From: Octopus sinensis | Taxonomy: Eukaryota | NCBI RefSeq assembly: GCF_006345805.1 | Contig: NC_043006.1 | Coordinates: forward strand, 104,160,001-104,224,000 | Direction: 5' to 3' | Length of the DNA: 64,000 bases | Part shown: in pieces, positions 1,807 to 63,979 of the stretch | How the letters are laid out: every line of letters starts with the position of its first letter | Position numbering within the stretch: the first letter of the stretch is position 1 | Notes under the pieces: model-generated | The model's input: the letters and a program-made list of their open reading frames with translations, nothing else | Told to the model about the DNA's origin: nothing | The model's database searches: none | Made by a program: the position numbers and the translations under genes

Positions 1807-2337
1807 ATATAGTGTATATTTAAACACTTAGAGAATCCACTTATAGGGATCCTAACGCATTAGAAAGAACAGCTAAGTTCTACGACCACAAAAAAGAATT
1901 CGGGATAAAATTCGACAGGAATAAATTTGGAAATGAAAAACATTTACCATCCAGTTTCCTGGACCAATTGGTGTCTAATAATCTTTTAGCGAGTCATGGG
2001 GAAATCACAAGGTTTGATTTTCTTCAGCAGTAAAATTGAACGTTTTTTATTGTAATTAAATTCCATTTCCCTTTGATATGACTATATATATATATTATAT
2101 ATTATATATATATCTATATATATTACATATATATATATGTATGTACATATATATATATGTATGTACATATAATATATATATGTATATATAATATAAATAT
2201 AAGAGAGTGGTCACTATATGGCTCACTCTAGCACCAGTTAATCCAAAAGGTTTCAACCACGAAAATACATGTTTCCCATGAAAGTCAGTACGATTGTTAG
2301 CTCACACGGACAGGGCAAATAAAAAATAACAAAAATA

Positions 2338-2434
2338 CAGATTATTTTGGGACAATTGTTTCGCTATTAATGAATTAAATGTAATTTTACTTACAAAAAA
2401 AATCCATTGGTAGCTCGTCAGCCAAAACTATCTG
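2338..2434 (-). ncRNA. Type I hammerhead ribozyme, family A copy 1
   Basis: Minus strand: cagatagUUUUGG-CUGACGA-GCUA...UAGC-GAAA-C-AAUU-GUC^CCAAAAuaaucug. Full core, stems I and II, palindromic stem III (CAAUUG). Confidence 0.88.
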
Positions 2435-2863
2435 GATGAAATCCACTCAATCACACGCCAGATTTTACCATAACGATAAATACGCGTGTGGTTCAATTGA
2501 TTACATCCGACGTTATAATTCAAATGCCCCAACTAACAGCGCGCCAAACTTTCACGGAAAACAAATACAGCATTTAGAAATAAATGCAGCATAATTATAA
2601 TTAATTAATAAGGGTGAGAGAATTAGACACTAATTTAATAGTATATCTATTCAACACCAAGTGGCCTAGTGCTCCGAGAAACCTGGATTATTATAATATT
2701 TTTACAAAATAAATATAAGAGAGTGGTCACTATATGGCTCACTCTAGCACCAGTAATCCAAAAGGTTTCACCACGAAAATACATGTTTCCATGAATCAGT
2801 ACATGTTTCACCCATGAAAGTCAGTACGATGCTCAAAAAAAAAAAAAAAAAAAAAAAAAAAAA

Positions 2864-2959
2864 CAGATTATTTTGGACAATTGTTTCGCTATTAATAAAT
2901 TAAATGTAATTTTACTTACAAAAAAAATCCATTTGTAGCTCGTCAGCCAAAACTATCTG
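2864..2959 (-). ncRNA. Type I hammerhead ribozyme, family A copy 2
   Basis: Same core as copy 1. One base is missing at the stem I/cleavage junction, possibly a read error. Confidence 0.75.
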
Positions 2960-3397
2960 GATGAAATCCACTCAATCACACGCCAGATTTTACCATAACG
3001 ATAAATACGCGTGTGGTTCAATTGATTACATCCGACGTTATAATTCAAATGCCCCAACTAACAGCGCGCCAAACTTTCACGGAAAACAAATACAGCATTT
3101 AGAAATAAATGCAGCATAATTATAATTAATTAATAAGGGTGAGAGAATTAGATACTAATTTAATAGTATATCTATTCAACACCAAGTGGCCTAGTGTCCG
3201 AGAAACCTGGATTATTATAATATTTTATAACATATTATAATATTTTTACAAAATAAATATAAGAGAGTGGTCACTATATGGCTCACTCTAGCACCAGTTA
3301 ATCCAAAAGGTTTCAACCACGAAAATACATGTTTCCCATGAAAGTCAGTACGATTGTTAGCTCACACGGACAGGGCAAATAAAAAATAACAAAAATA

Positions 3398-3492
3398 CAG
3401 ATTATTTTGGGACAATTGTTTCGCTATTAATGAATAAATGTAATTTTACTTACAAAAAAAATCCTTGGTAGCTCGTCAGCCAAAACTATCTG
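3398..3492 (-). ncRNA. Type I hammerhead ribozyme, family A copy 3
   Basis: Same core and stems as copy 1. Confidence 0.85.
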
Positions 3493-4250
3493 GATTAAAC
3501 CACTCAATCACCGCCAGATTTTACCATAACGATAAAAACGCGTGGGTTCAATTGAGTTACATCCGACGTTATAATTCAATGCCCCAACTAACAGCGCGCC
3601 AAACTTTCACGGAAAACAAATACAGCATTTAGAAATAAATGCAGCATAAGAATTATAATAATTAAAAGGGTGAGGAATTAGATACTATTTAATAGTATAT
3701 CTATTCACACCAAGTGGCCTAGTGCTCCACCAGAAACCTGGATTATTATAATATTTTTACAAAATAAATATAAGAGAAGTGTTCACTATAATGGCTCACT
3801 CTAGCACCAGTTTTAATCCCAAAGGTTTCAAAACCACGAAAATACAGAGTTTCCCATGAAAGTCAGTACGAATTGTTAGCTCCCGGACAGTGTCAAATAA
3901 TTAAATAACAAAAATACAGATATTTTGGGACAATTGTTTCGCTCTCTTATATTTATTTTGTAAAAATATTATAATATGTTATAAAATATTATAATAATCC
4001 AGGTTTCTCGGAGCACTAGGCCACTTGGTGTTGAATAGATATACTATTAAATTAGTATCTAATTCTCTCACCCTTATTAATTATTTATAATTATGCTGCA
4101 TTTATTTCTAAATGCTGTATTTGTTTTCCGTGAAAGTTTGGCGCGCTGTTGGTTGGGGCATTTGAATTACAACGTCGGATGTAATCAATTGAACCACACG
4201 CGTATTTATCGTTATGGTAAAATCTGGCGTGTGATTGAGTGGATTTCATC

Positions 4251-4347
4251 CAGATAGTTTTGGCTGACGAGCTACAAATGGATTTTTTTTGTAAGTAAAA
4301 TTACATTTAATTCATTAATAGCGAAACAATTGTCCCAAAATAATCTG
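4251..4347 (+). ncRNA. Type I hammerhead ribozyme, family A inverted copy
   Basis: CTGACGA 4264-4270, GCTA/TAGC stem II, GAAA 4323-4326, GTC 4332-4334, stem I TTTTGG/CCAAAA extended by CAGAT/ATCTG. Confidence 0.9.
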
Positions 4348-4620
4348 TATTTTTGTTATTTTTTATTTGCCCTGTCCGTGTGAGCTAACAATCGTACTGA
4401 CTTTCATGGGAACATGTATTTTCGTGGTTGAAACCTTTTGGATTAACTGGTGCTAGAGTGAGCCATATAGTGACCACTCTCTTATATTTATTTTGTAAAA
4501 ATATTATAATATGTTATAAAATATTATAATAATCCAGGTTTCTCGGAGCACTAGGCCACTTGGTGTTGAATAGATTACTATTAAATTAGTATCTAATTCT
4601 CTCACCCTTATTAATTAATT

Positions 4621-4738
4621 ATGTATGTATATATATATATATGTATGTATATATATATATATATGTATGTATATATAATATATAATATATGTATGTATAT
4701 ATATATATATATATGTATGTATATATATATATATATAT

Positions 4739-6974: not shown

Positions 6975-8870
6975 AAACTAACCGAGATGTGGTCCACCTC
7001 CAGATTTAATCCCAACTTATTTTCCTCTCAACAGCATGTTCCTCCAATCTTGTCATCTGTCCTTGTTGAATGTATTGGATCAAATGAAGCTCTCTTCTCT
7101 CTGCTTTCCTCGTTTTGACGCTGTTGCTAACAACAGATCTACATTCGCTCCGCATCATACCTGCAAATGGTCTGAACCGATCTGCGCCTAAACCAAGTCC
7201 CATCCGATGGATTTACGATGCACCCACCATGTCTCGATATGTAAGAGAAGGCAGCATGTCATCAGTCTCTGCTTCTGCTTTCTACTTCCTGGCTGTTTTC
7301 ATATCTGGTAGGTTACCCCTGATTTCCATGTCCTTCGACTCTCTCAGCATCACGTTCTTCTCTTTATAGTTTTCGAATATTGACGCCAGTGGTAACTGCA
7401 ACGAGCGTTTTTTACTATAAAGAGGTGAACTGTTCAATATCCGAGGTAGTCCTAGCCACTTTCTAATGAACATATTACATTTTTGTTCAATGATTTGAAC
7501 ACGTGACAATGCTACCTCGTATATTAAAAGTGGCCGAACTGTAAGCACCAAATTTTATATTTACCTGGCAATTTTGAGTCATCAATTGCTGATAATCCAA
7601 CGTCGGCTTGTTTCATAATTTCCATTCCGCAACTCCTATGTGACAATGTTCCAGCGTATACTCGCCTCAAGCTCTTGACGGGTTCTTCTTTGAATGTGGC
7701 AATGCTTTCTTCAGCTATTCAATACTTAACTTCTTTCTGCACTTCCTAAACAAATGTCAGACTACGGGAACTTTTTGCTCTAAGCTGCATCCTTGGCCAC
7801 CTCACAAGCTCGTCTAGTCTCAAGAGGCCACTCTGCATAATTTACTTGCCTTTTGATAGAAGTGTCACATCATCCATGAAGGCTTTCTTAGGCGATTGTA
7901 CTTTGGCGATTTGTTCCGAAAAAACCACGGCTTTCAAAATCGTCTCCATGACTAAGATAAACCACGTGACAGATATCGTGCAGCCAGCAGCAATGCCAAT
8001 CTCCAATCGGTGCCAATCTGTTGTAAAATCTCCAGTTGTAAACCCCATTTCGAAACTGTCGTAATATATCCTCTTTATTTTGGTTACTTTGTCTGGAATG
8101 TGGAAGTGGTCCATGGCTCTCATCAGTAATTCGTGTGGCACTGAGCCATATGCATTAGCTAGGTCGAGCCATACCACCTTCAGACTTCTCTTGTTCTGTT
8201 TGGCATCCTGGATCGCTTTCCAAATCGATAAACAGTCTTCAAAGCATCCAGGAATCCCAGGAATTCCGGTCTTTTGAACAGATTCAGCAACATATCCATT
8301 ACTCTGTAAATATGTCACTGTTTTCGTCGACAGAATTCCCATAAATATCTTGCTTGCAACATTCAATAAAGATATCGGCCTAAACTGTTTTATAGTCTCT
8401 GCATTGGCCTCCTTCGGCATGTATCTGCCTTCTGCTTTACACCAATCCTCTACTAGAGTCCCTTCGCGCCACTGCTTTCGTAGTAGGACAAAGAGCTTCT
8501 TTCGCAGACGATTGCAATATCTATATAGTTTATATGAGACGCTATTAACCACTGGGACACTCTTTACTCTAGCTTGTCTCACGAAATCAGTCACCTATTT
8601 CTCCCTGATGTCCCCAATTTGAAATTCGATATCAGGTTCTAAGAGATGCTTTCATCCATTTAGTGGTGGTATTGGCTGGTTACGATACGGATCGCTGTAG
8701 GCTTCTTTGATATGAGTGTCCAATTCTTCTTTCGTGCACGATAAAGTGCCCCTCTTCGGTTCATTGAACAGCTTCTTAGTAATCCCGTACGGATCCTTCA
8801 GAAACTGCCCCCGAGTCCTTTTACTTTCTTCTCGTCGCTCATATCGGCGAATATGTCGTTGCACATCACG
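6975..8870 (-). pseudogene. Degenerate non-LTR retrotransposon ORF (reverse transcriptase), Hero/NeSL-like clade
   Basis: Motifs FRPISLLNV, QKTGIPGIPGC, WLDLANAYGSVPH, GIAAGCTIS and AFMDD, followed by KWLGLP and GLGLG. Broken by stops and frameshifts. Confidence 0.88.
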
Positions 8871-23312: not shown

Positions 23313-23965
23313 CATGCCGCCGAAACCTACCACAAACACACCAGATAAAATTACCAGCGAGGACATATTGAAGGAATTAAAAAGAATTAACTCAAATCTA
23401 GTTATATTAACTAACGAAATCGTTGAATTAAATTGCTGCACCCAAGAGGCAACTGAAAATGAGTAGAGAAGACAATCTACAGAGAAGGTTAGACAAAATT
23501 TGAACGAACTCTGCACAACATTGCATTTAATTTTCACAAATTATTTTGAAAAAGAATCATCACCAAAATACCAAAGCCATAATGAAAATATACCAATGTC
23601 CGCACATTTAATTAAAAGCGCCATTAGCCATATTTGGTCCCAAAACCCAAACACTAGAATTATTTCCTATTTGGCGACACCTTCTTTCGTCGAAAATGCG
23701 GGATTGCGATGGGAACGAAAGCAGCCCCGGTTCTTGTGAAACTAATAATGAGATATTTTTAATTCACCTCATGAAGTGTCACTGCAAAAATATGGACATT
23801 CATTTCACTATTATTAAAGAGAAAACAGGAAAAGATATCTGGATGACTGCTTTATCATTTGGAATGAGACCATCGAGACACTTTTGGAATTTAAATGAAT
23901 ACTAAATAACATAAACCCTAACATTCAATTTACAATAGAATATAGCAAAGAACAGCACCACTTCT
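23313..23965 (+). pseudogene. Penelope-like element ORF remnant (N-terminus plus internally deleted RT)
   Basis: RT motif KRYLDDCFIIWNE followed by ILNNINPNIQFTIEYSKEQ (~23830-23960), typical of PLE RT. The upstream MPPKPT... segment may be the ORF start. Confidence 0.72.
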
Positions 23966-34535: not shown

Positions 34536-34872
34536 CTTTTTCTATTCCTGAGTGTTTTACTAATACATTTGTTTGCTTGTGTTCCACCTGCCTTCATCTT
34601 TTGTTTATTTTCGTAAACTTTCCCTTTATATATATATATATATATATACTTGAAATTTAGAGAAAAATAAAAGACGAAGACAGGTGTATGAACAACAAGT
34701 AGGTGAATTAGTTTGACGCAGGTGTATTAATTTGGCGCAGAAGTGGCTGTGTGGTAAGTACCTTGTTTACCAACCATAGGCACCTTGGGCAAGTGTCTTC
34801 TACTGTGGCCCCCGGCAGAACAAAGCATTGTGAGCAGTGGATTTCGTAGACAGAAACTGGAAGAAGCCCGTC

Positions 34873-34970
<98 letters not shown>

Positions 34971-35192
34971 TTTAATCAATTTAGGGTAGCAAAAAATTCA
35001 GTAAAAATTTATCGCTACCAGCGGCCTAATGGAAAAGAGAAAATAGTCAAAGACTAAATATGTATAAATATAACAATTTAGGAATGGCCTGAACAGGCCA
35101 TTCGTCCACCAGAAAGAGCAGCCATAACTCCAACCGCCAAGTAGTGTAATTCGGAAATAAGGTGAAAATTTAAAAACATTTACCCTAATTCA

Positions 35193-35293
35193 TCTTTTAT
35201 ACGATGCATCGTTTCGGTGTCTTTAATGATAGACCAGCTTAATTAAATTAAATTAAGCTGGTCTACCATAGGTCACACTTCATCAGTAAAAGA
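35193..35293 (-). ncRNA. Type I hammerhead ribozyme, family B copy 1
   Basis: Minus strand: UCUUUUA-CUGAUGA-aGUGU...long hairpin...ACACc-GAAA-CGAUGCAUCG-UA^UAAAAGA. 7-bp stem I and palindromic stem III. Confidence 0.9.
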
Positions 35294-35666
35294 AACCTGG
35301 GAGAGACGGATATACACGAGGCTACTGTATCAATGCCTCGGGAATATCTGTCTTAAAATTTTCAAGACCAACGCATTCGCGCCAAACTTATCGGCAGCAA
35401 ATATAAACTGCCGATTCAATCTCAGAATTAGTCAGAAAATTATCATTAATCAATTTAGGGTAGCAAAAAATTCAGTAAAAATTTATCGCTACCAGCGGCC
35501 TAATGGAAAAGAGAAAATAGTCAAAGACTAAATATGTATAAATATAACAATTTAGGAATGGCCTGAACAGGCCATTCGTCCACCAGAAAGAGCAGCCATA
35601 ACTCCAACCGCCAAGTAGTGTAATTCGGAAATAAGGTGAAAATTTAAAAACATTTACCCTAATTCA

Positions 35667-35767
35667 TATTTTATACGATGCATCGTTTCGGTGTCTTTAA
35701 TGATAGACCAGCTTAATTAAATTAAATTAAGCTGGTCTACCATAGGTCACACTTCATCAGTAAAAGA
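35667..35767 (-). ncRNA. Type I hammerhead ribozyme, family B copy 2
   Basis: Same as copy 1 with one stem I substitution. The cleavage site is 474 nt from copy 1. Confidence 0.88.
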
Positions 35768-36012
35768 AACCTGGGAGAGACGGATATACACGAGGCTACT
35801 GTATCAATGCCTCGGGAATATCTGTCTTAAAATTTTCAAGACCAACGCATTCGCGCCAAACTTATCGGCAGCAAATATAAACTGCCGATTCAATCTCAGA
35901 ATTAGTCAGAAAATTATCAATTAATCAATTTAGGGTAGCAAAAAATTGGCGGTTGGAGTTATGGCTGCTCTTTCTGGTGGACGAATGGCCTGTTCAGGCC
36001 ATTCCTAAATTG

Positions 36013-36054
<42 letters not shown>

Positions 36055-36266
36055 CTGTGTCTGTGTTTGACCCACCAGCATCACTTGACAACCGATGTTG
36101 GTGTGTTTATATCCCCGTAACATAGCGGTTCGGCAAAAGAGACCAACAATGAGTAAGTTCTGGGCTTGATTTGTTCGTCTAAAGTCGGTGCTCCGGCATG
36201 GCCGCAATCAAATGACTGACACAAATAAAAGAAAAGAATAAAAGAATATATATATATATATATACA

Positions 36267-37150: not shown

Positions 37151-37176
37151 TATTTATATATATGTATGTATATATA

Positions 37177-37578
37177 GGCGTAGATGTTGGTGTGTGGTTA
37201 GTAGCTTGCTTATCAACCACATGGTTCCGGGTTCAGTCCCACTGCGTGGCACCTTGGACAAGTGTCTTCTACTATAGCCTCGGGCTGAATAAAGCCTTCT
37301 GAGTGCATTTGGTAGACGGAAACTGAAAGAAGCCCGTCGTATATATATATGTATATGTACGTGTGTGCGTGTGTGTTTGTGTGTCTGTGTTTGTTCCCCC
37401 AACATCACTTGACAACTGATGCTGGTGTGTTTACGTTCCCGTATCTTAGAGGTTCGGCAAAAGTGACCGATAGAATAAGTACTGGGCTTACAAAGAATAA
37501 GTCCTGGGGTCGATTTGCTCGACTAAAGGCGGTGCTCCAGCATGGCCACAGTCAAATGACTGAAACAAGTACAAGAGT
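37177..37578 (+). mobile_element. CORE-like tRNA-derived SINE, full length
   Basis: Head GGCGTAG..TGTGTGGT..GGTTCAGTCC, CORE-like ACCTTGGACAAGTGTC, tail GACTGAAACAAGTA. Confidence 0.88.
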
Positions 37579-38521
37579 ACATGTCTTTATGAACGAATGA
37601 ATATATGAATGTATGTATGTGAATGTGTGTGTATGTGTGTGTGTGTATGTGTGCGTGTGTGCGTGTGTGTACTACAAAATGTTGCTGTTCGTCAGCTTTT
37701 GTCAGCTTTATCAACTAAAGAGGAACAGAGTACTTATTACAAAGTGTAGATCATATTGTTCATTTAAACGGCATTTTTTTTTTGTGGTTCGTGTTTCAAC
37801 GACATACTTTGGTATTCATTAAGCAAGATCCGTCTTCTTTTCTAATTCGGCAGGTTTTTGATTTTTACAAAAACAATCGTTCTTTTTCAATTTTTATAAA
37901 CAAAGGATCTTTTTCATTCCAAGTTTCCATTGGCTGTTTTACTTTTTTACTCCTATTTCTTTAGAGCATTAACTATTGTTGTCATCGCTTCATATTATTT
38001 ACATCAGTAGTTGTTCGGCATATTCTTTTCTATGGCGTAATCATAGCCTTTGTGTTAACTAAGCTCTGTCATGTTTTACTAGAGTTGTTTATTTGTATGG
38101 TTTTCATAAATTGGTTAGTTCAGTAGTTGTCCTCTCTCTGCCTGTTGTTTATGTCATGCATATCCTGTTTCACTAAAACGTTTGTTCTTTTTATTTCGCG
38201 AATTGTTATTTCCTACCTAAAGTTTCTAAAGATGTTTTTAATATAATCTGCAAGGGAAAGGCATTACGTTCTATATCTGATATCTCTAAAAAACGATTAT
38301 ATCCTGTTGGTTAATTTCCTTTAGTGTTCTCTTATTTCAGGCATTGTTTTGCCGCTATTTCTATTTACGCTGGTATTATGGCATGGGATGTTTAGCTCCC
38401 ACAAGATTTTAAAAGAATTCACTCCAGTGTCTGCAATGTGGTAGCTACACATTTCTATTCTTGAGCAAGAATATTAGCAATATAAGTGTTTATTTCCTGT
38501 GAGGTATAGGAATCCCATCAT

Positions 38522-38932
38522 GGCGAGCTGGCAGAAACGATGACACGACGGACGAAATGCTTAGCGGTATTTCGTCTGCCGCTACGTTCTGAGTTCAAAT
38601 TCCGCCGAGGTTGACTTTGCCTTTCGTCCTTTCGGGGTAGATTAAATAAGTACCAGTCACGCACTGGGGTCGATGTAATCGACTTAATCCGTTTGTGTGT
38701 CCTTGTTTGTCCCCTCTGTGTTTAGCCCCTTGTCGGTAGTAAAGAAATAGGTATTTCGTCTGCCGCTACGTCCTGAGTTCAAATATCGACAAGGTCGACT
38801 TTGTCTTTCATCCTTTTGGGGTAGATTAAATAAGTACCAGTTACGCACTGGGGTCGATGTAATCGACTTAATCCGTTTGTCTGTCTTTGTTTGTCCTCTC
38901 TGTGTTTAGCCCCTTGTGGGTAGTAAAGAAAT
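38522..38932 (+). mobile_element. Meta-like SINE: head plus 2 tandem bodies
   Basis: Internal junction AAAGAAATAG|GTATTTCG at ~38750. 20-bp TSD AGGTATAGGAATCCC(A/T)TCAT at 38502-38521 and 38933-38952. Confidence 0.9.
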
Positions 38933-39218
38933 AGGTATAGGAATCCCTTCATTGTACCAGTTATCTAAGGAGTTTCACTGTTCGTAATTGTATATCTTGT
39001 ATTTAAAATTCATTTTCATATTATTCTACACTGAAATACAAATACGTTTCCATAAAAGCAAAAATAAGAATTAAAACCATTGCGTCTCTCTTGTACGTGT
39101 TGGCCTGCGAATGTTTGTGTCGTGTGAACCTGATTTAAACGTGTTGCATGCCGTGGTTGTTAAATGCTAAAGAATATAATCCTTCTGGTTGTTTCCAATA
39201 TAGGTTTTATCTTACAAT

Positions 39219-40526: not shown

Positions 40527-40651
40527 GATAGATAGACAGATAGATAGATAGATAGATACATACATACATACATCCATCCATACATACATACATACATACA
40601 TACACACACACACATACACACATATATATTTATGTATAAGAAATATGAATA

Positions 40652-41065
40652 TAGGTGCAGGAATGGCTGTGTGGTAAGTAGCTTGCTTACCAATCACATG
40701 GTTCCGGGTTCAGTCCCACTGCATGGCACCTTGGGCAAGTGTCTTCTACTATAGCGTCGGGCCGACCAAAGGCTTGTGGGTGGATTTGATAGACGGAAAC
40801 TGAAAGAAGCCCGTCGTATATATGTATATATATATGTGTGTTTGTGTGTGTTTATGTTTGTGTGTCTGTTGTCCCCCCAACATCGCTTGACAACCGATGC
40901 TGGTGTGTTTACGTCCCCGTAACTTTGCGGTTCAGCAAAAGAGATCCGACAGAATAAGTACTAGACTTACAAAGAATAAGTCCTGGGGTCGATTTGCTCG
41001 ACCAAAGGCGGTGCTCCAGCATGGCCGCAGCCAAATGACTGAAGCAAGTAAAAGAGTAAAAGAGT
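40652..41065 (+). mobile_element. CORE-like SINE, full length
   Basis: Same family as 37177. Confidence 0.9.
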
Positions 41066-41424
41066 ATATATTAATACTTATATGTATCGTGCACGTGTGA
41101 GTGTGTGTTGTTTAGATTATCATTTTCTGATAGGATATTTATTGCTCGTTATTGCAAAAGAAACCGTGAAAAGTAGAACAAAAGTTTGCACGTACCCAGG
41201 ACAGACACAGCTGCATTCGGTTACGTAGTGAGACAAAAGCAATTATAATACCGTCATATATATTGTGATGATGTTCAGTTGATTACATTGATTCTAGTAC
41301 TTATCGACAAGAGGACGGTCATAGGAAAATCGACCCGGGCGACAATTAGATACCTCTGGGTAAAGTTGTAAATAAAGGTCACGTACTATTTTTTCGATAT
41401 TTTATCGATTTATCCAATACAATT

Positions 41425-47579: not shown

Positions 47580-48184
47580 GTTTGAACGCAAAAGGTAGCG
47601 GCAGACGAAATACCTATTTCTTTATTGCCCACAAGGGGATAAACACAGAGGGGACAAACAAGGACAGACAAGCGGATTAAGTCTATTATATCGACCCCAG
47701 TGCGTAACTGGTACTTATTTGATCGACCCCGAAAGGGTGACAAGCAAAGTCGACCTCGGCGGAATTTGAACTCAGAACGTAACGGCAGACAAAATATCTA
47801 CAAGAGGCTAAACACAGAGAGGACAAACAAGGACAGACAAACGGATTAAGTCTATTATATCGACCCCAGTGCGTAATTGGTACTTATTTGATCGACCCCG
47901 AAAGGATGAAAGGCAAAGTCGACCTCGGCGGAATTTGAACTCAGAACGTAACGGCAGACAAAATATCTACAAGGGGCTAAACACAGAGAGGACAAACAAG
48001 GACAGACAAACGGATTAAGTCTATTATATCGACCCCAGTGCGTAACTGGTACTTATTTAAACAACCCCGAAAGGATGAAAGGCAAAGTCGACCTCGGTGG
48101 AATTTGAACCCAGAACGTAGCGGCAGACGAAATACGGCTACGCATTTCGCCCGGCGTGCTAACGTTTCTGCCAGCTCGCCGCTT
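47580..48184 (-). mobile_element. Meta-like SINE: head plus ~3.2 tandem bodies
   Basis: Head at 48184. Two internal junctions share the same deletion (CAGACAAAATATCTACAAG) and one has the full junction (47605-47625). Confidence 0.88.
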
Positions 48185-49378: not shown

Positions 49379-49429
49379 TATATGTATGTTTATATATATA
49401 TGTGTGTGTTTATTATATAATATATATAT

Positions 49430-50338
49430 CGCGAATGGGCCCCAACTATGCGAACCTGTTCGTTGGCTATGTTGAGGCCAAATATTCTCTAATTTCACTG
49501 GTCCCACTCCTGAACTATATGGTCGTTATATTGACGACATTATCGGTGCCAACTCACTCTCCGCGAACATCTAGATTCCTTCCTCTCTTTCGTCCAATCT
49601 TTCCATCCAGCCCTCCACTTCACTTCCACTATCTCCAACACCTCTGTCTCCTTCCTGACATTTCAGTTAGCATTCTTCACTCCACTCTTACCACCTCCAT
49701 TCACTACAAACACACAGACTCACACTCATACCTCAACTTCTCTTCCTCCCACCCAGAACACACCAAACTTTCCATCCCCTATTCCAATTCCTCCGTCTAC
49801 GTAGGCTCTGTAGTGACGACCATGACTTTGAGACTCAGTCTCAACGTATGACTCACCACTTCACCCTACGTGGATACCCCCTCACCACTATCCACACCGC
49901 CCTTGCCAGAGCACGGTCCGTGGACCGTGTATCTGCTCTCTCTCCCCGAACCCGCCCTGTAGTCTCCCGCCTCCCTTTTCCCTCACGTACCACCCACGAC
50001 CTACGTCTCCAACGCACCATTCTTCGAGCTTTCATCATCTCAGTCCGACCGTCCACTTCAACACTCTTCCCTAACCGACCCCTCCCCTCTTTCAACGAGC
50101 CCACAACCTTCGAGACCTTTTGGTCACTAGCTCTTCCCTGACCCTACCTCCCACCGGCTCGTTCCCCTGTTCCCGCCCACGTTGCCGCACTTGCCCTTAC
50201 CTCTCCAACACCACCCCGCCTCACTAGCACCAACCATAGACCTATCCCATCCTCACTCCTTCACCTGCACCTCCAGCAATATTATCTATTGCATCTCTTG
50301 CTCTCTCTGCAATTCCTTGTACACATCGGACAAACGGG
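49430..50338 (+). pseudogene. Penelope-like element (Neptune-like) RT plus GIY-YIG endonuclease remnant
   Basis: [37 protein letters not shown], Cys linker FPCSRPRCRTCPY and FTCTSSNIIYCISCSLC. Many frameshifts. Starts at (TA)n and is cut by the gap. Confidence 0.9.
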
Positions 50339-50438
50339 NNNNNNNNNNNNNNNNNNNNNNNNNNNNNNNNNNNNNNNNNNNNNNNNNNNNNNNNNNNNNN
50401 NNNNNNNNNNNNNNNNNNNNNNNNNNNNNNNNNNNNNN
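50339..50438. other. Assembly gap (100 N)
   Basis: Run of N. Confidence 1.
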
Positions 50439-54950: not shown

Positions 54951-56196
54951 GTAAGGAAGCTTCATGCCGCGCGCGCGCGTGTAACTGCATTCGTTGTATG
55001 ATTTTTGCAGCTGTTTTGTGGGAGGGGGGAGGTAAAGAGTGACTAAGAGTTATGTGATTAATACGAAAGGGAATTGAATAATGTATAGTTTAAAATATGT
55101 ACAGAAACAAAACACGTGATTATATTTAAAAGAAATTTGCTCGGTTACAGGACAGACCCCTTATGCGCTCGTTTGCATATAGAAGGAGGGGGAATTTAAG
55201 AGATTCGGAAACTAAGTTTGGTTTCCTGATTGAACCGGTTTCCTTTCCCCGATGAATAAGTGATGGACATGGGATCAAAATGCTGCAAACTATCATTGAC
55301 TTACAATGAATTTGTTACCTTTACACCTAAATAAGTAATAAATTGTTTACTCTTGTTTTAGTCATATCTAATGTTCATATAATATTAATACCTTCGGAAA
55401 GCTCATCCGAGGGAAGTAGAAGGAGAAAGAGAGAGACAGAGACAGAGAGAGGAAGACAGAGGGAAGTAAGCTCTGTGTTTATTGTGAATTCGTATTATAG
55501 AATCTAGGTAAACACATCTCAAATGCAACCTGTGATCTTCTTTCAATCTCTCGGCGACACTTTGTGCGTTATACACGCTTTGTTGGAGACGTGGTTCGTA
55601 ATATGGAGAGTGATAGCTTACACACACATCTGACTCATTTCCTTTCAAATACTTAGGTTTATTGCTAGTAAACAGACACTTCGTATTGCTATATAAAAGA
55701 TATATAGCTGCTATTGTATTCTGTTGTATTTGAACATAAATACAAATGATGAAAGACGATGATGGTGACTCAAGAACCTGAACGACATTGGCATTTTTGC
55801 GTGACACACAGAAGACTGTAGTTATATTGGCGATGGAATGAATGTTCGTTTTTCAACCACATGATACCGCATTTGATCCCACATTACAGTTAATGTTTTT
55901 TATTGCAGCCACAAGATCATCGCCCTGTGAGTTTGAGTCTCCCTGTGTGTGTGTGGTGTTTAGATGTTTGCATTTATAATTACAGGTGTAAACTGGTGCA
56001 GCCTGTTTTTGTTATAAAATCACATCGTTGGACTAAGTACGAAACCGATATGAAAGAATGTTTTATGAACTACTACCTTCTTGATATTGCTCCAGGATGA
56101 CCGCAACCCAATGTATGAAACAAGTGAAAAAAAGTTTTTTGTGACTGCCATTGTTTACATTATTTACATTCGACAAGAAACATCTTGTTTCTTGTT

Positions 56197-56241
56197 AACA
56201 CAACGTTTCGGCTGATATACCCTCCAGCCGTCATCAGGTTC
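56197..56241 (-). ncRNA. PLE-type minimal hammerhead
   Basis: Minus strand: CUGAUGA-c-GGCUG-GAGGGUAUAU-CAGCC-GAAA-CG-UU^GUGUU. Stem I is weak in this copy. Confidence 0.7.
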
Positions 56242-56304
56242 TCATTCCTAAGGTATTTTTGATGCTGTCATCATTATCATCATCATCGTCATCGTCATCA
56301 TTGT

Positions 56305-56375
56305 TCAGGTCACTGCTTGGAATCTAACTCGGAATCTTGGGGTTGGTAGCCCGCGCTCTTAACCACAACGCCATA
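56305..56375 (-). other. tRNA-derived Pol III-promoter-like sequence
   Basis: Minus strand TGGCGTTGTGGTTAAGAGCGCGGGCTACCAACCCCAAGATTCCGAGTTAGATTCC has an A box and a degenerate B box. Confidence 0.65.
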
Positions 56376-56761
56376 TGACCGTTGGCAATAATGGAGTGAA
56401 TTTTAGGGCTTATAAATCAAATATTTTTCTATCCTTCCTTAACACCGGTTCCCATATTCTGTTCATATCTGCACTCGGTCTGCTTAGGAGGCTGTTGTGT
56501 CCTAGCATATGTGCTGCTTCTTTTAGTTTTCGTATTTTCCAGTGGTTTTCTCTGATTATTATTTTAACTTCATCCCTCAGTGGGAGGGTATATCAGCCGA
56601 AACGTTGTGTTAACAACAAACAAGATGAGGACAAATATCCGTCGAATGTAAATAATGTAAATAATGTACATAATTCCTCATCTTTTAAATGTAGAACTAT
56701 ACTGTCATTGTTCGATGAATGTAGCGTTTCCATCTATCAGCATTGACCAAGCATGTATATT

Positions 56762-56980: not shown

Positions 56981-57510
56981 GAGAAACTTGATGAAAACGT
57001 GACAGACGGGAAATATAGACGATGGCATGATACACGGAATATTCGCAGCTGAGCTTTCCTCGTCAGTCAATGACCCAAAATATCATAGGAGTTTCGCTAT
57101 TTTTTGTTATGTTGTATATAGCGTAAGGCTTCGCGCTGTTATATATGCATACTTCTTCGTCTATTATATAATGTATTTATAAAATGTCTTGTTTGTTTCT
57201 GTCTTCGTATGCATTCGCTAGCTTTTTCCCAGTAGCTTAATAGCAGCAATGGCGCCTCTAAAATTGAATGGTCTCAATGGTAATGGCGCGAAACCACTAT
57301 GGTATTTTGGGTCAGTGACTGTCAAGGAAAACTCAGTTGCGAACATTACGTGTATCGTATTTGTCTATATTTCCCATCCGTTAAGTTTTCGTCTAATTTC
57401 TCGTTTGCTCTGCTTAAGATTAACTTTTTCTCCTTGATCTCTTCTTTCTGTTCAACCCTTGATGTGAGGAGATAATGATGCAGATAACATTATTGGATTT
57501 GATATATATA

Positions 57511-57898
57511 GCAGGAGTGGCTGTGTGGTAAGTAGCTTGCTAACCAACCACATGGTTGCGGGTTCAGTCCCACTGCGTGGCATCTTGGGCAAGTGTCTTC
57601 TGCTATAGCCCCGGGCCGACCAATGCCATGTGAGTGGATTTGGTAGACGGAAACTGAAAGAAGCCTGTCGTATATATGTATATATATATATGTGTGTGTG
57701 TGTGTTTGTGTGTCCCCCTAGCATTGCTTGACAACCGATGCTGGTGGGTTTACGTCCCCGTCACTTAGCGGTTCGGCAAAAGAGACCGATAGAATAAGTA
57801 CTGGGCTTACAAAGAATAAGTCCCGGGGTCGATTTGATAGACTAAAGGCGGTGCTCCAGCATGGCCGCAGTCAAATGACTGAAACAAGTAAAAGAGTA
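57511..57898 (+). mobile_element. CORE-like SINE, full length
   Basis: Same family as 40652. Confidence 0.9.
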
Positions 57899-57968
57899 TA
57901 TAAACATATATCAAATTCCATACATATATAGATACACATAAATATATAGAGCTCTCTCTCCCTCTCTT

Positions 57969-58000
<32 letters not shown>

Positions 58001-58160
58001 CATATATATATATCGTGTTGCATATTTGCCATTTGAATATGGCTAACCCATAAGGGTGGATGCTACTGTAGTTTGTAGCCCCAGGAAGATATCTCCTCCA
58101 GTTGGCTATAGACACACTATCTGTGTCCTGTCAGTATTTGTGAAGGGGAGTCATCCTCCC

Positions 58161-58241
58161 CGTCTTCAACACATGATACACACGTACCCGAGTTTCAAGG
58201 TGTTTACCTTTCATCAGCGTGTGACAATCATGGTGTCGACG
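58161..58241 (-). ncRNA. Type I hammerhead ribozyme, family C copy 1
   Basis: Minus strand: CACACG-CUGAUGA-AAGGU-AAAC-ACCUU-GAAA-C-UCGG-GUA^CGUGUG. Stem I is extended by CAUGAU/AUCAUG. Confidence 0.92.
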
Positions 58242-58513
58242 AGAAGTCAGATCCCTTCACAAATACATATACTTTTTCCAGTGTCGATTTGACACTGATA
58301 ATGAAAAAAGTGAAATCAAACAATGATAAATCTCAGAGCGAGTTATAAACAGTAGCGGTAACACTTCGTGTTGCATATTTGCCATTTGAATATGGCTAAC
58401 CCATAAGGGTGGATGCTACTGTAGTTTGTAGCCCCAGGAAGATATCTCCTCCAGTTGGCTATAGACACACTATCTGTGTCCTGTTAGTATTTGTGAAGGG
58501 GAGTCATCCTCCC

Positions 58514-58595
58514 CGTCTTCAACACATGATACACACGTACCCGAGTTTCAAGGTGTTTACCTTTCATCAGCGTGTGACAATCATGGTTGTCGACG
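58514..58595 (-). ncRNA. Type I hammerhead ribozyme, family C copy 2
   Basis: Identical core. The cleavage site is 353 nt from copy 1. Confidence 0.92.
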
Positions 58596-58766
58596 AGAAG
58601 TCAGATCCAACTAACCAGTTGTCTATAGCCAACTGGGGGAGATATCTTCCTGGGGCCACAAACTACAGTAGCATCCACCCTTATGGGTTAGCCATATTCA
58701 AATGGCAAATATGCAACACGAAGTGTTACCGCTACTGTTTATAACTCGCTCTGAGATTTATCATTG

Positions 58767-58814
<48 letters not shown>

Positions 58815-58901: not shown

Positions 58902-59745
58902 CTAGCAGAATTGCCCGGCGTTGCTCGGGGCTGAATTGCTTGAAAGTACTGTTAATGATTGCACTGAATTATGATGATTATTCAGGTAAATATTGATATA
59001 AGTTTACGTTGGGAGATAAGGACTTAACGATCAAACGTGTGCCATTGCATTGTTTTGTGGGAACCAAATTTCTGATGAGCATTATAGGGGCACCAACTTT
59101 AAGTTTGAGAATGTGTGGTGGTAGTCCGGGGTGCTCAAAGGAATTGAGTACCTCTATTGGATAGTTGATGACGTCCTCTGGGTCAGGAGTTGTATCGATA
59201 GACTGATATACATAGACTTCCCCAGGAATGAGGTTTAGCATTTCATCATTACTATGGTGAACAGTTTTATTCCTCGGGGCCTGTATAGCCTTTTGGCCAA
59301 TCCAATCCATATTCTGATAATTAGCTTGTAGATCTTGGAACACTGCATCTCTGAGATCAGAAGGCGTCTTAACAATGGTACAAATGGAATCGATGGCAAT
59401 ATTACCATTTTCATCCCCTGGTAATTTGCCTTCGCCAAGTGCAAGGAGGGTGTGAGGAAATGCTGCTGATGTGATATTACGTCGCATATGAGCACGCATA
59501 TTGGTGTGAAGTTTGAGAGTTACTTCCCTTTATTAAAAAAATATGCATTAAAATGGGAAAAAATGATGGTAAATTATTTGTAAAATCGTAGACTCATCGT
59601 AGACGCGCGCTAATACCCAGAAGGGCTCGATATGAATCACGACTATAAGATACTCGGTTTTGGTTAAACTGCATCGCAAAATGTGGGAGTAGTTAGGAAT
59701 CTAAATCGGAGTAGACAGACACAATCTTTCTTTTATATATAAAGA
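58902..59745 (-). mobile_element. Internally deleted Helitron with PIF1-like helicase fragment
   Basis: The minus strand starts A|TC (59745) and ends with hairpin CCCGAGCAACGCCGGG plus CTAG|T (58902). ORF 58978-59499 contains LPPHILKLKVGAPIMLIRNL and CNGTRLIV. Confidence 0.9.
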
Positions 59746-60266
59746 TTTTCGTCCTAAAAAACTTTGTATGGAGTGAATGGTTACCTCTATGGAAATATAT
59801 ACACACACATTATACATACATGTGTGTATAGATGAATATGTAAATACATTTAAATATCTATATACACTTTTGGGCGATCTTTCTGCTTCTTAGAGATAAC
59901 TTTAGATCTTATTTTCGTCCTAAAAACTTTGTATGGAGTGAATGGTTAGCTCTATGGAAATATATACACACACGTTATACATACATGTGTGCATAGATGA
60001 ATATATAAATACATTTATATATCTATATACACTTTTGGGCGATCTTTCTGCTTCTTAGAGATAACTTTAGATCTTATTTTCGTCCTAAAAAACTTTGTGC
60101 GGAGTGAATGGTTACCTCTATGGAAATATATACACATACATTATACATACATGTTTGTATAGATGAATATATAAATACATTTAAATATCTATATACACTT
60201 TTGGGCGATCTTTCTGCTACTTGTATATACTTTAGATCTTATATTCGTCCTAAATAACTTTGTATG
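59746..60266. repeat. Tandem repeat, ~165-bp unit x3.1
   Basis: Units start at 59746, 59912, 60077 and 60242 (TTTTCGTCCTAAAAAACTTTGTATGG). Confidence 0.92.
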
Positions 60267-60513
60267 AATTGAAAAGAAAATGAATTGAAATTTTTAAGAA
60301 AGGAATTTGTTTACATACATGTGTCAAATGGCAAATGTTTGTGCAGTTGTCCGAAATGGAACCAGGGTAAATGTGTGGAACTGATGTATTATAATGAATA
60401 GTCCTTCTTGTTGTGAATATTAATTTAATTAATATGAACTGAAAACCAGTGGTGTAGCATAGGTGATCTTCTTCTAGCAAAAAGGATAACCAGTCTGAAT
60501 GGGTCATCCCTGT

Positions 60514-62703: not shown

Positions 62704-63979
62704 CGAGGGACGTTCAATAAGTAATGCCTCTGACCCACTTCCAGTTGTTTGATATAGCTGTGCAATCATTTATATCTCTATAGAGTAAGTGGCAAATTAC
62801 AGCTCTGAATTAATTGTGGTTTCCGATTTACAGGTGTTTGAACCGAGTCAAGTGTGAAATGGAGCCTGTTGAGTGTCGAGCAGTGATCCGGTTTTTGTAT
62901 TTGAAAGGACGCACACCACGGGAGACTTTTGATGAAATGAAAGTAACTTATGGTGATGATGCCCCATCATATGACCTTGTAAAACGCTGGCATCGTGAAT
63001 TCAAACATGGTCGGAACTCTGTGGAAACAGCTCCCAGATCTGGTCGCCCCTTCTGCCATTGATGAGGCATCTGTCCGTCAAGTTGAGGCTGCCATTTTGG
63101 AAGATCGACGCATAATTATTCGCCAAATAGCCCATGAGGTCAAGATTAGTACCGGGTCTCTGGAAACTATCATTCATGACCATTTGCATATGCAAAAGGT
63201 GTCTGCCAGATGGATACCCAGGTTGCTCACGCCTTTCCAGAAGCAAGAACGCGTCGAGTACTCGAGGGTGAATTTGGAGATGTGTCAAGACGATGAGTCA
63301 AAATTTTTCAAAAGACTGATTACACAGGATTAAACCTGGGTCCATCAAATGATCCAGAGACCAAAGCCCAGTCAATGCAGTGGAAGCACCGTGATCACCC
63401 CCTCCAAAGAAGGCAAGGGTGCAGCCCTCAGCTGGCAAGGTCATGCTCACAGTCATCTGGGACGAGGACGGAGTAGTGATGACAGATTTCCTGGCAAAGG
63501 GTACCACAATTGCAGGAGCCTATTATGCTTCACTTTTGAGGAAATTAAGAGAAGTTATCAAAATCAAGAGGCGGGGCAAGATCAGCAAAGGCATCCTCCT
63601 CCTGCAGGACAACGCTCCGGTCCACAACTCGCTTATCGCCAGATCAGAAGCACAGGCGTATGGCTATGAACTCCTCCCCATCGCCCCTACATTCCTGACC
63701 TTGCACCCTCTGATTTTCACTTCTTCCCAATCATGAAGTTGTTTTTGAAAGGAAAGCGTTTCCCAGATGATGCAGCCTTGATTTCTGAAGTCACGTTGAG
63801 GTTGGAGGACCAAGCTGGGTTCTTCTACAAAAACGGTCTCCAGAGCCGCATCAAACGATGGGAGAAATGCGTAACTCTGGGTGGTTCCTATGGCGAAAAT
63901 GACTAATAACTGTGTCAAGTTTCGTTGCTCTACTGCTATGGTAAGTGGGTCAGGGGCATTACTTATTGAACGCCCCTCG
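62704..63979 (+). mobile_element. Full-length mariner element (1276 bp)
   Basis: TIRs CGAGGGACGTTCAATAAGTAATGCCTCTGACCCACTT and AAGTGGGTCAGGGGCATTACTTATTGAACGCCCCTCG, with TA flanks. Confidence 0.95.
62859..63906 (+). pseudogene. Mariner DD34D transposase pseudogene
   Basis: MEPVECRAVIRFL..., RSGRP, VSARWIPRLLT, ITQD*TW, LLQDNAPVH, PDLAPSDF and RWEKCV. Frameshifts and a stop. Confidence 0.92.

Follow-up and report, generated by a model that had tools for sequence, protein, structure and literature searches.

The analysed window is a 64,000-nt stretch of the Octopus sinensis genome (contig NC_043006.1, positions 104,160,001 to 104,224,000 of the forward strand). The insertion described here, representing a repeat that we call family B, is made up of unit 1, unit 2 and a third unit of which 27 nt are present, followed by a 73-nt copy in inverted orientation (Table 1). 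The first two units are 474 nt long and differ at one of 474 positions (35194 is C and 35668 is A), which bears out the preliminary description of two almost identical units; TRF reports a period of 474 and 2.1 copies in this window. At the second junction the period is 475, owing to an extra A at 35920. The direct array amounts to 976 nt, or 2.06 units, and the inverted copy is identical to 35542-35614. A TT microhomology joins the array to the inverted copy and two truncated 5' ends meet there, while both outer ends of the insertion are 3' ends of the element (in the ribozyme sense), about 97 nt apart within the unit. Other tandem arrays in the window, with 165-184-nt units at 742-1293, 38566-38938, 47631-48134 and 59745-60273, gave no match to the hammerhead descriptor.

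Table 1. Coordinates of the family B insertion and its surroundings in the window
Feature	Position	Strand	Basis or remark
Left half of dispersed SINE-like host repeat	34734..34873	+	Alignment to intact copies, first half
(TA)n target tract, left	34874..34970	.	TRF
Unit 1, 474 nt	34972..35445	-	TRF, unit comparison; long 3' end of element is 34972
Stem-loop upstream of long 3' end, then CUAAAUUG	34985..35019	-	Fold; variant check on unit 2 equivalent, 35459-35493
9-bp stem-loop upstream of short 3' end, then CUAAAUUG	35082..35103	-	Other copies 35556-35577, inverted 35983-36004
Hammerhead 1, type I	35193..35293	-	Stem I 7 pairs; core CUGAUGA/GAAA; GUA 35202-35200; A.C at 10.1-11.1
Stem II of hammerhead 1, 64 nt	35216..35279	-	19-bp hairpin arms 35226-35244 and 35251-35269
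Unit 2, 474 nt	35446..35919	-	TRF, unit comparison
Hammerhead 2, type I	35667..35767	-	Stem I has a private C.U mismatch at 35668
12-nt word common to families A and B	35852..35863	-	About 90-120 nt upstream of core in both families
Extra A and 27 nt of 5'-truncated third unit	35920..35947	-	
Inverted 5'-truncated copy	35946..36018	+	TT microhomology 35946-35947; stops at short 3' end
(TA)n target tract, right	36014..36054	.	TRF
Right half of dispersed host repeat	36050..36258	+	Alignment to intact copies

Three intact copies of the host repeat, which we take to be a SINE, were compared within the window (37169-37582, 40640-41090 and 57503-57910), and they carry a short TA tract at the place where the halves flanking family B join. 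As the flanks are the two halves of this repeat, with a TA tract at the join, the element entered a (TA)n tract. To judge from the single difference between its units and the identity of the inverted copy over 73 nt, the insertion is recent, and the earlier label "young" is appropriate to it; the label does not extend to the family, some of whose copies are 7-10% diverged.

The unit has a GC content of 0.36 and all of its six frames are interrupted, and Pfam gave nothing above the cut-off for the two longest stop-free frames (94 and 63 codons). Six-frame reading and Pfam found no RT + GIY-YIG ORF in the family B element. As far as its frames tell, the unit is non-coding and the element, being without an RT-endonuclease ORF, is not an autonomous PLE. 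A decayed PLE C-terminus within the unit was considered as well and found unsupported, on the same grounds of interrupted frames and two open frames without a Pfam match.

Each unit carries a variant type I hammerhead

On the minus strand, each unit bears one type I hammerhead, with CUGAUGA at 35760-35754 and 35286-35280. The GUA cleavage triplets end at 35674 and 35200, and the spacing of exactly 474 nt given for them in the preliminary description was recovered. The core elements CUGANGA, GAAA and UH are all present, and both stem I and stem III close on them. The canonical base pair at 10.1-11.1 is missing: the A.C mismatch already remarked upon recurs in both units, and a diverged subfamily has A.A instead. 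Because of this mismatch we file family B as a variant hammerhead. It speaks against ribozyme activity that a mismatch here is rejected by strict hammerhead filters (PMC3088659), that 1/9 predicted Xenopus dimers cleaved in vitro, and that in the Anolis PLE hammerhead cleavage required protein and was dispensable for insertion. On the side of tolerance, natural hammerheads with U.U at this place exist. Rfam yielded no hammerhead match in family B, and it was likewise blank for family C (see below), the stem II of which is short.

Stem II opens with the A.C mismatch and 4 pairs; a 5x5 internal loop separates these from a 19-bp hairpin, in which one pair is G.U. Fifteen contiguous Watson-Crick pairs of the hairpin correspond to the 15-bp perfect hairpin reported earlier, which extends to 19 bp once the G.U is admitted. 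Perfect hairpins reached at most 10 pairs in 300 dinucleotide-shuffled versions of the unit. A hammerhead equalling that of unit 1 was found in 0/100 shuffled windows, and a loose descriptor was matched once in 4 of the 100, while the hammerhead descriptor has 7 matches in the real window, all within three repeat families. Hairpin and hammerhead thus lie beyond shuffle levels and chance does not explain them. The internal loop after the 4 stem II pairs and a bulge after the 7 stem I pairs occupy the places where the parts of a loop 1-loop 2 tertiary contact would be expected.

The only difference between the units falls in stem I, to which the descriptor assigns 7 pairs in unit 1 and 5 in unit 2. 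Other copies of the family carry unit 1's C at this position, and the lesion of unit 2 is either a private change or an assembly error. Stem III is palindromic over 12 nt if A15.1 and U16.1 are counted, and the 10-nt palindrome described previously is its inner part. Folded into a hairpin, stem III has an energy of -1.0 kcal/mol; the duplex reaches -18.7, and the dimeric folding proposed earlier is in this sense favoured energetically. It is unnecessary, however: stem III forms with 4 pairs in the monomer, whose active fold lies 1.9 kcal/mol above the best one.

Folding of the circle, a check recommended in the preliminary description, gave -143.7 kcal/mol for the minus strand (z = -9 against 60 shuffles) and -120.1 for the plus strand. 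With the core held active the circle reached -138.0 kcal/mol, which amounts to a cost of 5.7 kcal/mol. The linear monomer fold had z = -7.5. Anatomy, together with the covariation described below, supports the idea of a tandem hammerhead unit potentially yielding unit-length RNA.

Pairing of stems II and III is kept among relatives

The family B stretch, whole or in part, is present in 20/22 listed sequencing runs with five organism labels, and four of the runs (X1, X7, X8 and X19, with four organism labels) were mapped onto one unit. The mark "RNA?" on some runs is a guess, there is no RNA holder among those listed, and the runs were used as sequence samples. X1 gave 1589 contigs, 440 of them at 99+% identity, 518 at 95-99, 477 at 90-95 and 154 under 90; their summed depth was not taken as copy number. 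Family B is dispersed and multicopy, because these contigs span a range of identities and because several different ends and an inversion junction are seen. Near-identical contigs (1/145, 3/199 and 6/339 letters differing) stand beside the subfamily diverged by 7-10%. Exact-pattern scans found 0 loci in metagenome contigs and 0 in viral contigs.

Among the four mapped runs, the inversion side is covered by X1 only. Head-to-tail joints with a period of 475 occur in X8 and X7, and an X19 contig continues into the next unit. The X8 joint was considered as evidence of a circle and rejected, for the same joint is found in the window and in X7, a DNA-type run being included.

Of the 63 variant rows, 40 were listed. 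The 29 changes listed for an X19 contig comprise 10 at unpaired positions, 9 pairs that are kept and 6 that break. In its stems II and III, 5/5 listed changed pairs are still paired (3 compensatory, 2 G.U), while the 6 broken pairs are all outside the ribozyme, where 6/10 listed changed pairs break. In an X7 contig, 4/4 listed changed pairs of stems II and III are still paired. GUA/GUC are the only variants at H17, and no other core change occurs among the listed rows; 10.1-11.1 is mismatched in all variants seen, position 11.1 being C or A. At 35734/35735, nearly all X1 depth has the wobble-forming base (G.U). The hairpin of the diverged subfamily contains U-A pairs and a 1-nt bulge, and 6 substitutions and 1 insertion are listed in the 44 nt of the hairpin arms. 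As the pairs of stems II and III are kept, the hairpin is conserved, though its perfection is allele-specific: the earlier word "perfect" is correct for the window, but it describes a single allele, with G.U or U-A pairs and a 1-nt bulge in others.

It could be argued that such pairing belongs to a DNA-level satellite, in which template switching between the inverted arms made and kept the hairpin and the ribozyme is a dead relic. Compensatory changes within inverted repeats can indeed arise in DNA, and the stem I lesion in unit 2 would suit a relic. Such a satellite does not account for the host repeat split at (TA)n, for the fixed 3' ends or for the lack of any listed core change except at H17, and the G.U pairs on the ribozyme strand would be A.C mismatches in DNA. 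We consider this explanation most improbable.

Another reading, which we find very unlikely, is that the hairpin is functional cargo of the circle, serving either as a small-RNA precursor for Dicer/Ago or as a docking site for ADAR/dsRNA proteins. The 64-nt symmetric arm is pre-miRNA-sized, no listed variant loses the pairing, and each of the 4 uncompensated changes forms a wobble on the ribozyme strand. Yet the arm sequence drifts, as the listed substitutions and insertion indicate, and the long stem II of another hammerhead family in the window (family A) has an unrelated sequence and imperfect pairing. Rfam miRNA matches on family B did not go beyond chance and were far below gathering scores. 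Moreover, for Dicer a stem of 19 bp is short, and the base of the hairpin is not freed by the hammerhead cut. Six hairpin words are absent from 3 supplementary files of an octopus miRNA paper (PMC9699675; file 2 lay outside the search), which carries no weight either way. Most likely the hairpin is a structural extension: it would strengthen a stem II that the 10.1-11.1 mismatch weakens, and make the RNA more compact.

Two 3' ends follow similar stem-loops

The long 3' end lies at unit position 35446 and the short one at 35542-35544, and in the fold a stem-loop followed by CUAAAUUG is found upstream of each. Downstream of the cleavage site, the long 3' end comes after 228 nt and the short one after about 130. 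A 9-mer common to both end windows was equalled in 2/2000 shuffles, which is a post hoc figure. A hairpin previously placed at 35083-35104 is real and lies at 35082-35103. The other one, given as ~35317-35340, does fold (~35316-35341), but 3/4 of its listed changed pairs are broken in the X19 contig. We regard the stem-loop with CUAAAUUG as a candidate signal for starting reverse transcription.

Among the loose ends listed (17 of 87), other copies run into TA-rich sequence at ~35446 (X8), ~35538 (X7) and ~35580 (X1), and no ORF of an autonomous element sharing the unit was found beyond them. The X19 contig starts at 35537, and X8 contigs have a further inversion junction at 35842. The two fixed 3' ends are about 97 nt apart, as against the 30-40 nt given in print for PLE tails.

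Other hammerhead repeats and a probable PLE fragment lie in the same window

Two more hammerhead families with tandem and inverted copies are present in the window, which supports a PLE retrozyme. Family A (2168-4622, minus strand) has about 3 tandem units of ~525 nt and an inverted copy, with TA-rich ends; its type I hammerhead has CUGACGA, a GUC site and a 50-52-nt stem II. The many indels of this family suggest assembly errors. Family C (58013-58770) has a 353-nt period, a short stem II, an inverted copy with a ~45-nt tail, and TA-rich ends. ATTGTT precedes (TA)n at the long end of family C and the short end of family B. The alignment of family C to family B did not go beyond chance (142/300 shuffles as good). 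A fourth hammerhead-like repeat at 56149-56666 (CUGAUGA at 56237, minus) has an inverted partial partner and resembles a minimal PLE hammerhead.

Families A and B share a weak colinear alignment of ~160 nt (2/300 shuffles as good), which includes a 12-mer and the long 3' end. This GC-rich 12-mer occurs at 2540, 3065, 3595, 4137, 35378 and 35852, in families A and B only and in the same orientation; it presumably resembles an E2F site and may be a promoter element. A sigma-70 promoter scan stayed at chance level, the model being bacterial and the host a eukaryote. In X8, X19 and X7 contigs at 35846-35877 we observed a further diverged family, in which only 32 nt around the 12-mer are common at >=80%; this stretch, being kept there, marks the most conserved non-ribozyme part.

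The stretch 49429-50339 holds a PLE-type RT that is frameshifted and carries a CxxC linker as well as the beginning of an endonuclease. This presumably Neptune/Nematis-type PLE is 5'-truncated in (TA)n and ends 3' in an N gap. Two database relatives of it, both unnamed, score weakly as RVT_1, and a short decayed stretch at 23658-23900 has weak similarity (E ~0.02) to the same RT proteins. The PLE label is given because of the linker description in PMC8557442. The fragment is a candidate for the class of the helper enzyme. Further fragments in the window are RVT_1 (7845-8594, minus), a Pif1 helicase (58981-59529, minus) that we take to be Helitron-like, and, at 62983-63733 (plus), what we assume to be a mariner-like transposase fragment without Pfam support.

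Family B compared with retrozymes and PLEs

Family B has what is expected of a retrozyme, with at least 2 tandem type I hammerhead units, no coding capacity, a GC content below 45-50% and a dispersed distribution. The metazoan retrozymes of PMC7229834 share with it the non-coding tandem unit, low GC (36% in family B), one type I hammerhead per unit and a strongly folded monomer; a mismatch at the helix II base, there U.U, is likewise found in axolotl HHR_Amex2. The non-LTR retrozyme units described there measure 350-390 nt in mussel, 220-245 nt in coral and 330/350 nt in axolotl. Unlike them, family B has a unit of 474/475 nt, a 64-nt stem II with a 19-bp hairpin in place of a short capped helix, an A.C or A.A mismatch and a 4-pair stem III; the inversion and tail footprint is absent from the passages of that paper on which this comparison draws. 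With two consecutive units bearing a type I hammerhead, family B falls under the "active" retrozyme definition of bioRxiv 10.64898/2026.07.22.740005, and its length is within the 51-972 bp range of that preprint. The case made there is built on pLTR phylogeny and on co-occurrence, for which 31 vertebrates, 3 insects and a coral were used, whereas family B offers an integration footprint. Mobilisation of animal retrozymes by PLEs has been proposed from co-occurrence and phylogeny, in papers that leave the mechanism open.

PLE insertions are described in PMC8557442 as having partial tandems, an inverted 5'-truncated copy, a tail at one end and a preference for (TA)n. In PMC11167929 the tail is shown to be set by two internal sites of RT start, and the PLE protein to cleave AT-rich DNA on both strands. 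The family B insertion matches this footprint in its partial tandems, inverted 5'-truncated copy and (TA)n target, and has a putative tail. In the EN+ PLEs of these two sources and PMC4209133, too, copies in tandem and inverted, 5'-truncated ones occur with a (TA)n target and a hammerhead ~100-230 nt upstream of the 3' ends. In contrast to these EN+ PLEs, family B is without an RT or GIY-YIG ORF and its putative tail is ~97 nt rather than 30-40. The Naiads, a (TA)n-targeting PLE clade reported from Octopus, are described as being without canonical hammerheads, unlike family B. Thirty-one recently active Penelope-like families are given for O. vulgaris in PMC13282606. Four 11-mers of the unit had no relevant match in one supplement of PMC8557442, and in the open-licence literature we found no account of such a stem II form or of cephalopod retrozymes.

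Proposed origin of the insertion

We think it probable that family B is a non-autonomous PLE of the non-LTR retrozyme kind, placed in (TA)n by a Penelope RT-endonuclease acting in trans. In this scenario, an array would be transcribed on the minus strand, and hammerheads, probably aided by pairing of two palindromic stems III, would excise unit-length RNA, which a host ligase would circularise, as has been demonstrated for retrozymes of mussel, coral and axolotl. The PLE protein would then cut both (TA)n strands and begin to reverse-transcribe the RNA from an internal position, at one or the other of the two stem-loop and CUAAAUUG sites. One cDNA would have run 976 nt and the other 73 nt, the two being joined at TT.

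The direct array crosses two cleavage sites, and a cleaved linear monomer could give only 228 nt from the long start. A circular or an uncleaved multimeric template is therefore likely, a template jump by the enzyme being a further option. The 1-nt difference at the junctions leans slightly against a single perfect circle, and RT, repair or assembly error could explain it.

Alternatively, family B might be only a pLTR, that is, the 5'-truncated terminal repeat of an autonomous PLE with no circular life, a weak or protein-assisted hammerhead and an uncleaved template. PLE insertions are mostly 5'-truncated, and uncleaved RNA is the dominant substrate for the Anolis PLE. The 10.1-11.1 mismatch and the 5.7 kcal/mol that the active circle fold costs point the same way. 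Still, the unit joins itself head to tail twice in the window, and also in X8, X7 and X19 contigs, and between the copies there is no ORF, the two longest stop-free frames having no Pfam match above the cut-off. We therefore judge the terminal-repeat explanation improbable and favour the retrozyme mobilised in trans.

Significance

The locus presents a likely coding-free retrozyme with a PLE footprint and two mapped candidate start sites behind similar stem-loop signals. With footprint and starts at hand, the template question and the recognition signal can be tested in the existing in vitro PLE assay. As Rfam and strict descriptors miss a long, mismatch-opened stem II, such families are probably undercounted. 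The locus adds a PLE footprint in a retrozyme without coding capacity, a pair of end signals and a long stem II that is conserved; the class was already known, which limits the surprise.

A bolder view, which strikes us as unlikely, holds that families A and B belong to a clade of retrozyme circles in which stem II has become a selected dsRNA cargo module, and that the duplicated stem-loop with CUAAAUUG is the cis element through which a PLE enzyme captures a circular RNA and begins rolling reverse transcription. If this were true, the footprint of the insertion would directly show that PLEs carry the retrozyme circles of animals as passengers, and would define a minimal RNA signal for integration targeted at (TA)n.
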